The notes under the pieces were generated by a model that did no database searches, was not told where the DNA came from, and was given only the letters and a program-made list of their open reading frames with translations. 64,000 nt of DNA from Nitrospirota bacterium (lineage in GTDB: Bacteria; Nitrospirota; UBA9217). Shown here in pieces: positions 52,421-56,960 of this stretch. The stretch's first letter is position 1. Every line of letters begins with the position of its first letter. The translations under genes and the position numbers were made by a program. Location: contig JAOUEV010000003.1 in NCBI GenBank assembly GCA_029858565.1, positions 32,001 through 96,000 on the forward strand, given 5' to 3'.

Positions 52421-54115
<1,695 letters not shown>

Positions 54116-54164
54116 GGACGTGACACGTGATGCGTATGACGTGGAGCGTAAGGGGTACGGGGAA

Positions 54165-54419
54165 ATGCAGGAGCAGGACCTAGCGAAGATCAGAGCAATC
54201 ATAGAAGAGCGGAACGTCCGTTATGCTCCCAAGGGAGGCAGCGTTACCCTTGCGGGTATCGAGGGCGGGACCGTGAAGATCGCGCCTGCGGGATTCTGCT
54301 GGCGGTGACATGTGACCCGTATAGCCCTGGTCGAGGGCTTGCAGGAAAAGTTGAAAAAGGAGTTTCCCTGGGTTGAACAGGTCATTGTGATCAACCTGGA
54401 TAAGACAAAAAAAGCTTGA
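54165..54419 (+). CDS. NifU/Nfu-like domain protein with CxxU (putative selenoprotein, TGA at 54306-54308)
   Basis: MQEQDLAKIRAIIEERNVRYAPKGGSVTLAGIEGGTVKIAPAGFCWR-U-HVTRIALVEGLQEKLKKEFPWVEQVIVINLDKTKKA; Nfu-like pattern continues past the TGA. Confidence 0.8.
54323..54339 (+). promoter_or_regulatory. Putative bacterial SECIS hairpin
   Basis: AGCCCT-GGTCG-AGGGCT; G-initiated loop begins 20 nt after the UGA. Confidence 0.7.
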
Positions 54420-54444
54420 ATTTCAAGGACAAAGTTCCTATAAT
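54416..54444 (+). promoter_or_regulatory. Near-consensus sigma70 promoter
   Basis: TTGAAT-17 bp-TATAAT. Confidence 0.65.
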
Positions 54445-54473
54445 TAAATTCGTCATCGGAGGGAGCGCAACCC

Positions 54474-54701
54474 ATGGACGAGTCTATCAAGATCTCGCTT
54501 ACGCCCCAGCAGAGCGCGGAGATCAAGAAACAGATCGGATTCGAACTTACCGAGATATACCTCACCAAACGTTCACTGAACAAGCTTCGTGTCTTCCGGC
54601 TGCGCCTGAGCGAGGAACAGCAGGAGCAGATCACCGAGGCTTGGGGTCAAAAGGTGAAAGAATTGACCGTGACCCGCTCAGTCGCCACCCGGATAATGTA
54701 A
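54474..54701 (+). CDS. Small hypothetical protein with an internal duplication
   Basis: RBS GGAGGGAG, own promoter; ISLTPQQSAEIKKQIG..LTEIYLT versus LRLSEEQQEQITEAWG..VKELTVT. Confidence 0.7.
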   Translation: MDESIKISLTPQQSAEIKKQIGFELTEIYLTKRSLNKLRVFRLRLSEEQQEQITEAWGQKVKELTVTRSVATRIM

Positions 54702-54780
54702 TTGAGAGAATGATCGCGCCGCGCAAGGGGCGCGCAGGTTTATTGTTGGTCCAGACCGAATGCGAAGGGAGGTGATTCCT

Positions 54781-54981
54781 GTGAAAAAGGCATTTTCGCT
54801 CCTGCTTTCATTGGTTATTGTTGCTACATTTGTCATGATCGGCTGTGAGAAGAAGCCCGAACCCCCGAAGCCGGCCCCGGCTCCGGCGGTAACGCCTCCT
54901 CCACCGCCCCCGGCTCCGGCACCTGCTCCGGCTCCCGCGCCGAAGCCTGCCCCGGCCCCCGCAAAACCGGCAAAGAAGTAG
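54781..54981 (+). CDS. Small Pro/Ala-rich lipoprotein
   Basis: RBS GGGAGGTG, GTG start, lipobox MIGC, (PA)n tail. Confidence 0.8.
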   Translation: MKKAFSLLLSLVIVATFVMIGCEKKPEPPKPAPAPAVTPPPPPPAPAPAPAPAPKPAPAPAKPAKK

Positions 54982-55015
54982 CGGTCCGCGGGATGTACAG
55001 TATGGCGATCAGCTC

Positions 55016-55043
55016 AAGGCCCCCATATGGGGGCCTTTTCTTT
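55016..55043 (+). terminator. Rho-independent terminator
   Basis: aaggcccccat-atgggggccttttcttt. Confidence 0.75.
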
Positions 55044-55163
55044 CGATGGTGTCGGTGGGAGTCCGACTTGGAAGCAGTGGAAACCGGGATGCCGGAGGGT
55101 GTGATGCTCCGGGACCACGGTGTCCCTTGCTGGCAGTCTCTACGCGAACGTGCGGGAATCCCT

Positions 55164-56960
55164 ATGAACAAACTGACAACGGACATTCTGTGCGATATCC
55201 TGCTCAAAGCCAAGGAGATCACGGCCGAACAGGCGCGGGAGATCAAGCTCAAACAGGACCATCAGCGCATGAAGATCCTGCGCTCCCGGGGCGAATCGGT
55301 CCACCGCGGCAGGGTGCATCTCGAGGAGGAGGTGTCGGCCATCGAGGTCGCGGCATCCTTTGAATTTCCGTCAGCGGCTGCAGCAGGAAGGGTGCTGAAC
55401 GAGGACACGGTGACCGAGATCGTGGCTCGCCACGCGGGCCTGCCCTTTCGCAAGATCGACCCCCTGAAGCTCAATCCGGAGATAATCACCCAGATCCTGT
55501 CCCGGGCGTTCGCCCGAAAGAACACCGCCGTTCCCATCGAGCGGACCGACGACCAGCTCGTTGTTGCCGTCGCCGATCCCTACAACCTCGAAGTGGTCGA
55601 GAACATCGGGCGCATGGGCTACAAGGTGGCGCGTGTCATGTCGCCCAAATCGGACCTGGTCAAGATCATCACCGAGTTCTACGGATTCCGTTCGTCGGTG
55701 AGCGCCGCCGCCAAGGAGATCTCCGGCGAGGTGGACCTGGGAAACCTCGAGCAGTTCGTCAAGATGAAGGCCGTGTCCGAGATCGAGGCCACGGACAAGC
55801 ATATCGTGAACGCCGTGGAGTTCCTGTTCCGGTACGCTTTTGACCAGCGGGCAAGCGACATCCACATCGAGCCAAAACGGGAGACCTCGGAAGTGCGCCT
55901 CCGGATCGACGGAATGCTCCATTCGATCCACAAAGTGCCCCGCCAGATCCACCCGGCGCTCGTTTCCCGCGTCAAAATGCTGTCGCGCATGGATATCGCC
56001 GAGAAGCGCAGGCCCCAGGACGGACGCATCAAGACCGAGTACAAGGGCAGGGAGGTCGAGCTTCGCGTGTCGACCATGCCGGTCGCGTTCGGCGAGAAGG
56101 TCGTGGTCAGGATCTTCGATCCCGATGTGCTGCTCCAGGACCTGGAAGAGCTGGGATTCGCGCCCCGGGAATATGAGCTTTTCCGTTCGTTCATTGCCCG
56201 GCCCCACGGCATCGTGCTGGTGACCGGGCCGACGGGAAGCGGCAAGACCACGACGCTCTACTCGGCGCTCAAGACCATTGCCGTGCCGGAAGTGAACGTG
56301 GTCACCATCGAGGACCCGATCGAAATGGTCCATGACCGGTTCAACCAGGTGGCGGTCCAGCCCCAGATCGGGGTGACCTTCGGCAGCACGCTCAGGACGA
56401 TCCTCCGCCAGGACCCGGACATCATCATGGTGGGCGAGATCCGGGACCTGGAAACCGCAGAGAACGCGGTGCAGGCAGCCCTGACCGGCCACCTGGTGTT
56501 CTCCACGCTGCATACGAACGACGCGGCGAGCGCTGTGACACGGCTCCTGGACCTCGGTCTCCCCGCCTATCTGATAGCATCGACCGTGATCGGGATCATG
56601 GCCCAGCGGCTGGTCCGCAAGGTGTGCAAACATTGCGAGCGGACCTATGAGCTGCTGCCCGAGGAGGCTGAAGCGGTCGGGCTCACGTCGGACTCGCGCA
56701 AGCCGGTGACGGTGAAATACGGCGAAGGATGCGCGCAGTGCCGGGGAACGGGCTACCTGGGCAGAAGCGGCATCTACGAAGTCATGGAAGTGAACGAGAA
56801 AGTACGCCCGCTCATCACCGAGAAGGTGGATGCAGACCGCATTAAAAAGACCGCTGTCGGCGACGGCATGGTTACCCTGCGCGCGGCGGCGGTGCACAAG
56901 ATGATTGAGGGTGAGACCACCTTTGACGAGGTCATCCGGGTAACAGGGGAGAAGATTTGA
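55164..56960 (+). CDS. GspE/PilB family secretion ATPase
   Basis: RASDIHIEP, RRPQDGR, TGPTGSGKTTTLY, LRQDPDIIMVGEIRD, STLHTND, two CxxC. Confidence 0.95.
   Translation: MNKLTTDILCDILLKAKEITAEQAREIKLKQDHQRMKILRSRGESVHRGRVHLEEEVSAIEVAASFEFPSAAAAGRVLNEDTVTEIVARHAGLPFRKIDPLKLNPEIITQILSRAFARKNTAVPIERTDDQLVVAVADPYNLEVVENIGRMGYKVARVMSPKSDLVKIITEFYGFRSSVSAAAKEISGEVDLGNLEQFVKMKAVSEIEATDKHIVNAVEFLFRYAFDQRASDIHIEPKRETSEVRLRIDGMLHSIHKVPRQIHPALVSRVKMLSRMDIAEKRRPQDGRIKTEYKGREVELRVSTMPVAFGEKVVVRIFDPDVLLQDLEELGFAPREYELFRSFIARPHGIVLVTGPTGSGKTTTLYSALKTIAVPEVNVVTIEDPIEMVHDRFNQVAVQPQIGVTFGSTLRTILRQDPDIIMVGEIRDLETAENAVQAALTGHLVFSTLHTNDAASAVTRLLDLGLPAYLIASTVIGIMAQRLVRKVCKHCERTYELLPEEAEAVGLTSDSRKPVTVKYGEGCAQCRGTGYLGRSGIYEVMEVNEKVRPLITEKVDADRIKKTAVGDGMVTLRAAAVHKMIEGETTFDEVIRVTGEKI

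Follow-up and report, generated by a model that had tools for sequence, protein, structure and literature searches.

The described proteins closest to the one analyzed here are the Nfu proteins, which carry the C-terminal domain of NifU (PF01106; e.g., 1xhj, 2m5o, 1veh, and 2z51), and two kinds of selenocysteine (Sec)-containing proteins, namely a HesB-like selenoprotein (HesB is related to the A-type iron-sulfur [Fe-S] carriers) and CxxU redox selenoproteins such as the SelW-like, AhpD-like, and GrdA proteins, which have thioredoxin-like or other folds and not the Nfu fold. In the Nfu C-terminal domain, the CxxC motif binds a [4Fe-4S] cluster at the homodimer interface and is required for function, and a Gly residue just upstream of this motif is also important (PMC5014551). 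The HesB-like selenoprotein (TIGR01911) is likewise a small selenoprotein tied to an Fe-S carrier family, but it belongs to a different family, listed with the motif UxGP in the table of a 2026 selenoproteome review (PMC13188914). Other selenoproteins listed there have Sec at the Fe-S-binding position of their Cys homologues, but in different domains, none of them Nfu (PF01106), whereas the listed redox selenoproteins named above share the CxxU motif with the protein that we describe. Here, we analyze a short gene, nfuSec, in a 64,000-nt stretch of the genome of a Nitrospirota bacterium (assembly GCA_029858565.1, contig JAOUEV010000003.1, positions 32,001–96,000 of the forward strand; hereafter, the window, in whose numbering all positions below are given). 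The gene almost certainly encodes a genuine 84-residue selenoprotein with SelB-dependent decoding of the UGA at codon 48, and its best explanation as a whole, to which we assign a rough probability of 0.55, is a Sec-containing accessory Nfu-type Fe-S carrier.

The nfuSec coding sequence (54165–54419, + strand) comprises 84 codons, including Sec48, and a terminal TGA. The frame that opens at ATG 54165 reaches a TGA at 54306–54308, which we read as selenocysteine (U48), and then continues for 36 more sense codons (HVTRIALVEG...KTKKA), so that the readthrough product has 84 residues and the motif G43-F-C45-W-R-U48-H49. The open reading frame (ORF) list made with translation table 11 splits the gene into two pieces, 54120–54308 (62 aa) and 54312–54419 (35 aa). 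The original prediction, which was made from the letters of the window, had noted the interruption at this TGA and the 36 open codons behind it, and its coordinates and strings all proved correct. We chose ATG 54165 as the start codon because the orthologues described below have 46–48 residues before U; GTG 54120 is also open as an upstream start. The second TGA (54417–54419, + strand) is presumed to be the true stop because conservation ends before this codon: the C-terminal tails of the orthologues differ in length and sequence, and their stop codons are TGA, TAA, or TAG. Contigs from two other DNA runs span the internal TGA (X2 record 6, 54267–54510; X3 record 14, 54185–54525), and none of the sequence changes listed for these runs falls at 54306–54308.

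Based on domain searches, the readthrough product belongs to the Nfu family, and the position of U48 within the domain coincides with a cluster ligand. With C standing in for U in the query, the Pfam NifU match (PF01106) spans the TGA, covering residues 10–74 and profile positions 2–67 of 67 with 38.2 bits (curated cut-off: 27 bits), which bears out the NifU/Nfu assignment of the original prediction. The NCBIfam scan returned weak matches, far below threshold, to NifU and NfuA, and no dedicated model for a Sec-containing Nfu. A profile built from ten orthologues matched five solved Nfu-domain sequences (2z51, 1xhj, 1veh, 2m5o, and 2jnv), and the printed alignments to three of them (2z51, 1xhj, and 1veh) place 'GfcWrch' over 'GaCgsCps', with C45 and U48 on the two Cys residues of CxxC. 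The second ligand position is thus the Sec column, as had been proposed; C45 is present, and U48 is the TGA codon at the second CxxC column, so the ligand pair is intact only if Sec is inserted. G43, which precedes the first Cys by two residues, is shared by all 28 sequences. An AlphaFold2 model computed with the 28-member family alignment (mean predicted local distance difference test score 81.7, predicted template modeling score 0.66) contains a helix (residues 2–23), two strands (26–33 and 36–42), the C45..U48 loop, a second helix (49–66), and a further strand (72–75), and this predicted order of helix, two strands, ligand loop, helix, and strand is that of the Nfu fold. The protein therefore resembles Nfu/NifU C-terminal domain proteins in its domain, its predicted secondary-structure order, the placement of the ligand pair in the loop that leads into the second helix, the invariant Gly (G43), and its single-domain size of about 80 aa. 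It differs from canonical Nfu proteins in having Sec and not Cys as the second ligand and C-W-R-U-H in place of C-G-S/T-C-P, in sharing only about 30–35% identity with them, and in having been found in Nitrospirota records only. A reading of CxxUH as a haem c site (by likeness to CxxCH) was dropped, as inspection of the N-terminus by eye showed no signal peptide and the domain is Nfu.

Comparative evidence indicates that the TGA and the frame behind it are maintained together. An orthologue is present in 9 of the 40 genomes of relatives (three of the same genus, six of the same family) at 52–70% identity, and each has a single in-frame TGA at the corresponding column, with conservation extending on to residues 76–84. 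Three further relatives scored with one TGA (G015, G026, and G036) represent the ordinary stops of canonical Nfu genes. All nine orthologue-bearing relatives and the source genome also encode a canonical CxxC Nfu; the paralogue in the source genome is single-domain and reads ...GACGSCPMS... (CGSC). To search more widely, we used a degenerate DNA pattern back-translated from G-[FY]-C-W-R-x-H-x-T-R, in which x was TGA, TGC, or TGT and for which our arithmetic gives a chance expectation of about one match in 596 Gb. The scan of 185,579 species genomes yielded 28 loci, all in records whose titles name Nitrospirota, Nitrospirae, Nitrospiria, Nitrospiraceae, or Thermodesulfovibrionales, and the metagenome scan yielded 85 stretches, 80 of which were turned into loci. 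Without exception, codon 48 is TGA, in all 28 genome loci as in all 80 metagenome loci (108/108); this count holds for sequences with G[FY]CWR.H.TR, since both DNA patterns required these residues and would pass over Cys or Sec forms flanked by others. Recurring in 9 of 40 relatives and in every motif-matched locus, the TGA with an open frame behind it exceeds chance.

The variation on the 3' side of the TGA is of the coding type. Among 28 distinct sequences (L072 was excluded for its disrupted frame), entropy at codon positions 1, 2, and 3 was 0.72, 0.40, and 1.15 in the 27 codons after the TGA, and 0.69, 0.67, and 1.40 in the 28 codons before it. Stop codons after the TGA are absent in frame (0/28) and occur in 24 of 28 and 10 of 28 sequences in the other two frames. 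Conservation thus does not end at the TGA, since both the orthologues and the coding signature continue past it. The alternation of Cys and TGA that the original prediction had also anticipated holds in part: it is seen when the protein is set against the wider Nfu family, including the genome's own CGSC paralogue, but not inside the subfamily. Frame disruptions upstream or downstream of the TGA were observed in 1 of the 28 genome loci (L072, identical to metagenome locus L093) and in 3 of the 80 metagenome loci (L093, L111, and L131); these copies could be decaying genes or assembly errors. Several loci end at contig ends.

In protein databases, the gene appears only in pieces. A word-indexed search of 5.8 billion proteins gave 17 matches, all 46–63 aa long with a query cover of 53–55%, which carry either no name or the label 'hypothetical protein'; a Nitrospirota metagenome-assembled genome (MAG) is the source of one. 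When the ten-sequence profile was run in full with HMMER against 1.84 billion representatives, 88 matches resulted, of which the top nine (68–83 bits) all stop at profile position 46–47 and five others begin at positions 49–52, whereas the top full-length matches (35–45 bits) are ordinary canonical CxxC Nfu proteins. The expectation that standard pipelines truncate the gene is borne out by these copies, which are fragments cut at the TGA. In the same search, two long proteins, P0032 (1184 aa) and P0036 (733 aa), matched the profile repeatedly, over 10 and 6 short stretches, respectively, and may be repetitive. In a tree of 84 columns, the 28 Sec sequences all fall to the same side of a long branch (length 0.91; support 93/90; 96% of bootstrap trees), a result that we read only for the grouping of the Sec rows because the alignment is short and the bootstrap had not settled. 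One long Cys-containing row (P0103) joins the Sec side and was flagged as possible long-branch attraction. Within the Sec group, an inner group of nine sequences (100/100) corresponds to clade 2; the clade of the window is referred to as clade 1. Clade 2 (L058, L059, L064, L066, L067, L074, L075, L076, L079, and L080) has the pattern ...RIRPTG[FY]CWRUHMTRMDLV... and takes in a record titled Mn-Nitrospirae-1 (L080).

The source assembly, which consists of 144 contigs and is 100% complete by marker genes, encodes the machinery for Sec insertion. Matches to selA, selB, tRNA-Sec, and selD were all above curated cut-offs; selA and selB adjoin on one contig, and the tRNA-Sec, above its Rfam cut-off, was also called by ARAGORN as tRNA-SeC(tca). 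Hence selA, selB, selC, and selD, on whose presence the original prediction depended, are all found in this genome. There are two full-length selD genes (L001, G000:C3:2376-3290; L002, G000:C14:90529-91446), each with one in-frame TGA, a pairing that points to two Sec-containing selenophosphate synthetases. Among the nine orthologue-bearing relatives, selA was found in seven.

Downstream of the UGA (54306–54308) lies a SECIS-like (Sec insertion sequence) hairpin (54319–54342, + strand), whose core AGCCCU/GGUCG/AGGGCU (54323–54339) comprises an upper stem of 54323–54328 paired with 54334–54339 and the loop GGUCG at 54329–54333; the lower stem adds three pairs (54319–54321 with 54340–54342), with U54322 bulged. 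The rules given for bacterial SECIS (bSECIS) elements call for an apical loop of 3–9 nt on top of an upper stem of 4 bp or more, with G among the first two loop positions, for a UGA-to-loop distance of 16–37 nt, and for a minimum free energy of −7.5 kcal/mol or lower (PMC13188914). The hairpin in the window, with its loop GGUCG, 6-bp stem, 20-nt spacing, and −10.0 kcal/mol, conforms to these constraints, and the original prediction had described its 6-bp stem, G-initiated loop, and spacing accurately. Under strict rules with no mismatch allowed, 63 of 82 distinct family segments pass, all with a spacing of 20–21 nt and with loops of GGUCG, GUC, GUG, GUU, GGUC, or GGUCAG, compared to 206 of 1924 codon positions (about 11%) in four neighboring genes; the 63/82 count comes from related family members and not from independent trials. 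RNAalifold returned the same six pairs from the ten orthologues, among which pair 24–40 is AU in four, GC in four, GU in one, and AC in one. In clade 2, the hairpin seems, by eye, to be shifted by one register with an internal mismatch. An Rfam scan of 53000–56000 at E ≤ 10 found no SECIS or other relevant family, a result of little weight given that it is uncertain whether a general model for bacterial SECIS elements exists in Rfam. The hairpin fits a SECIS element and is kept in place, and the RNA evidence is supportive of Sec insertion and not an independent proof of it.

By analogy with Nfu proteins, the carrier reading would work as follows. SelB and Sec-tRNA(Sec) would decode the UGA at 54306–54308, recruited by the in-frame hairpin with its GGUCG loop 20 nt downstream, and the second TGA (54417) would end translation of a single-domain protein with the fold of the NifU C-terminal domain. 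A bridging [4Fe-4S] or [2Fe-2S] cluster would then sit between two subunits, each contributing Cys45 and Sec48, and would be handed on to client apoproteins; the nfuSec product would thereby serve as an accessory carrier alongside the ordinary CGSC Nfu paralogue of the genome. Sec insertion, dimerization, cluster binding, and cluster transfer are the steps that we infer here. Given a genuine selenoprotein, the odds that it acts as an Fe-S carrier appear evenly balanced. A more specific version is put forward tentatively, at rather less than even odds: a Sec-only Nfu lineage, so far confined to Nitrospirota, in which Sec may directly ligate an Fe-S cluster that can be transferred, with the invariant W-R...H...R residues tuned for faster or more oxidation-tolerant delivery than by the Cys paralogue of the same cell. 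This would amount to a natural Se-ligated cluster within the Fe-S trafficking machinery.

Several observations weigh against this interpretation. The invariant W46, R47, H49, and R52 are unlike the small residues and Pro of canonical CGSCP, and such residues around C45 and U48 could mean chemistry other than cluster carriage. A Cys codon at the Sec column was found in 0 of the 108 pattern-matched loci, although TGC and TGT were permitted, and neither the word-indexed nor the HMMER search returned a Cys-containing member of the subfamily, the nearest Cys relatives being canonical Nfu proteins; the subfamily thus offers no Cys form from which tolerance of Cys at this site could be read. In the RNA, 19 of 82 segments fail the strict no-mismatch bSECIS rules, the fold is no better than that of dinucleotide shuffles (z = −0.24), the covariation score was matched by 81 of 500 column shuffles, and, on synonymous-codon resampling, no more than 7 of 29 sequences reached p ≤ 0.05 (median 0.113), none of them in clade 2. 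The hairpin by itself is not beyond chance; the shuffling and resampling statistics do not alone show selection on the RNA, and a tendency to form the stem follows already from the amino-acid sequence ALV-x-G when it is encoded by preferred codons. For selA and selB, no match was found in two of the nine orthologue-bearing relatives, G005 (89% complete) and G009 (96% complete). A selD with an in-frame TGA is present in each of the two, and a tRNA-Sec match above the Rfam cut-off in G009; the missing matches fit incomplete bins. The RNA run X7 (7% of words) has zero cover across 54010–54774 and is uninformative on expression either way. Lastly, gene neighborhoods differ between the two clades, with no shared partner and no Fe-S pathway named by them, so no functional conclusion is drawn from gene context.

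The case for Sec rests mainly on the domain identity with the position of U, on the Sec machinery, and on the comparative evidence, and less on the hairpin, and it is against this evidence that two readings without Sec have to be judged. The TGA might be a real stop and the Nfu gene split or decaying, with a 47-residue peptide as its product and possibly a second, separately started peptide of 35 residues. This is how gene callers read the locus: all 17 database relatives are 46–63-aa pieces, the representative library holds both N-terminal and C-terminal fragments, and GTG 54312 could start the second piece in the window. This is very improbable, since the TGA is fixed in all 108 loci, both flanks show variation of the coding type, the frame is open in 28 of 28 downstream stretches, the break would fall inside the CxxC motif, and frame disruptions are confined to the few copies mentioned above. 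Moreover, the codon that corresponds to GTG 54312 is ATC, ATA, ATT, GTC, GTA, or CTG, and not ATG, GTG, or TTG, in 14 of 29 distinct sequences, which makes a conserved restart after the TGA unlikely. Readthrough with a standard amino acid, whether by near-cognate Trp, Cys, or Arg decoding or in a recoded genome, gains from the weak hairpin statistics, and our analysis does not discriminate the inserted residue. It is nonetheless just as hard to credit as a split gene: TGA also serves as an ordinary stop in nfuSec and its orthologues, so the genome is not recoded; the complete Sec system is present and is itself needed by selD; the codon stands at a Cys ligand position; and the hairpin behind it has bSECIS spacing and a loop that begins with G.

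A third alternative accepts the selenoprotein and concerns its role. The product may be a genuine Sec-containing Nfu-fold protein that is not an Fe-S carrier, with C45-x-x-U48 acting as a selenylsulfide redox center or binding another ligand (a metal, sulfur, or selenium species), aided by H49, R47, and R52. We know of no Nfu-fold redox enzyme, which counts against this possibility, as do the fold, the G-x-C-x-x-C spacing, and the location of the pair where the second helix begins, all of which are those of cluster-binding Nfu domains. In its favor, W46, R47, H49, T51, and R52 are invariant in the 28 members, unlike the canonical G-S/T...P; the branch of length 0.91 leads away from all sampled Cys forms; and a canonical Nfu is retained in the genome, so that a carrier role is already covered. 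In addition, most uncharacterized selenoproteins carry CxxU or UxxC and are probably redox proteins, according to the 2026 review (PMC13188914). A non-carrier role is therefore far from improbable, although it is the less favored one, and the Sec-containing accessory Fe-S carrier is the reading that we retain.

The genes around nfuSec were compared among loci. Upstream, proS (prolyl-tRNA synthetase; 52421–54115, + strand), a name taken from the original prediction and backed by high tblastn identity among loci, ends 49 nt before nfuSec; no terminator-like site was found between the two genes, which are probably co-transcribed. Directly downstream lies orf75 (54474–54701, + strand), which encodes 75 aa of no known family: it has no Pfam family, only a 12.8-bit NCBIfam match, and nothing useful in the ESM Atlas. 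A promoter-like site, TTGAAT-17-TATAAT (54416–54444), overlaps the nfuSec stop ahead of orf75. Wherever the DNA of a clade-1 locus extends far enough, orf75 directly follows nfuSec; at 73–89% identity across these loci, it is more conserved than nfuSec itself (52–70%), and tblastn did not find it in clade-2 loci. The clade-1 order is kept wherever the DNA reaches, as ispG, proS, nfuSec, orf75, a small Pro-rich ORF, a T2SSE-type ATPase, and a CNNM/CorC transporter. In clade 2, the context (two loci, L058 and L075) consists of a radical SAM gene upstream, a nitroreductase on the opposite strand, nfuSec, and SLOG cluster-4. Between ispG and proS, the window also contains a 108-aa nucleotidyltransferase-domain ORF (PF01909; 51851–52177, + strand), which overlaps the end of ispG by 4 nt and for which tblastn gave no match in the other loci extending into this region. 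In two MAG loci (L061 and L056), the proS or ispG match is split into several tblastn pieces, which suggests frameshifts or indel errors in these assemblies.

As for novelty, Table 1 of the 2026 selenoproteome review (119 families or subfamilies; PMC13188914) contains no PF01106 entry, and a term search for NifU/Nfu gave no occurrence in the searched text of this review or of a second one (PMC9312934). Our literature searches found no Sec-containing Nfu, although the supplementary candidate lists of primary selenoproteome papers might include one. The Sec-containing Nfu would represent a branch of the Nfu domain with Sec forms only, and it would be a new addition to the CxxU selenoproteins. 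All database copies that we found are fragments, those with names being called 'hypothetical protein', which amounts to a systematic annotation error and hides the gene from proteomic and comparative work on Nitrospirota of groundwater, sediment, and wetlands. If our interpretation is correct, the prokaryotic selenoproteome would gain a family absent from the 2026 inventory of 119 families, and selenium would be placed at a ligand position of an Fe-S cluster carrier. Because the protein is small and a Cys paralogue is encoded in the same genome, cluster binding and transfer with Sec and with Cys would be directly comparable.

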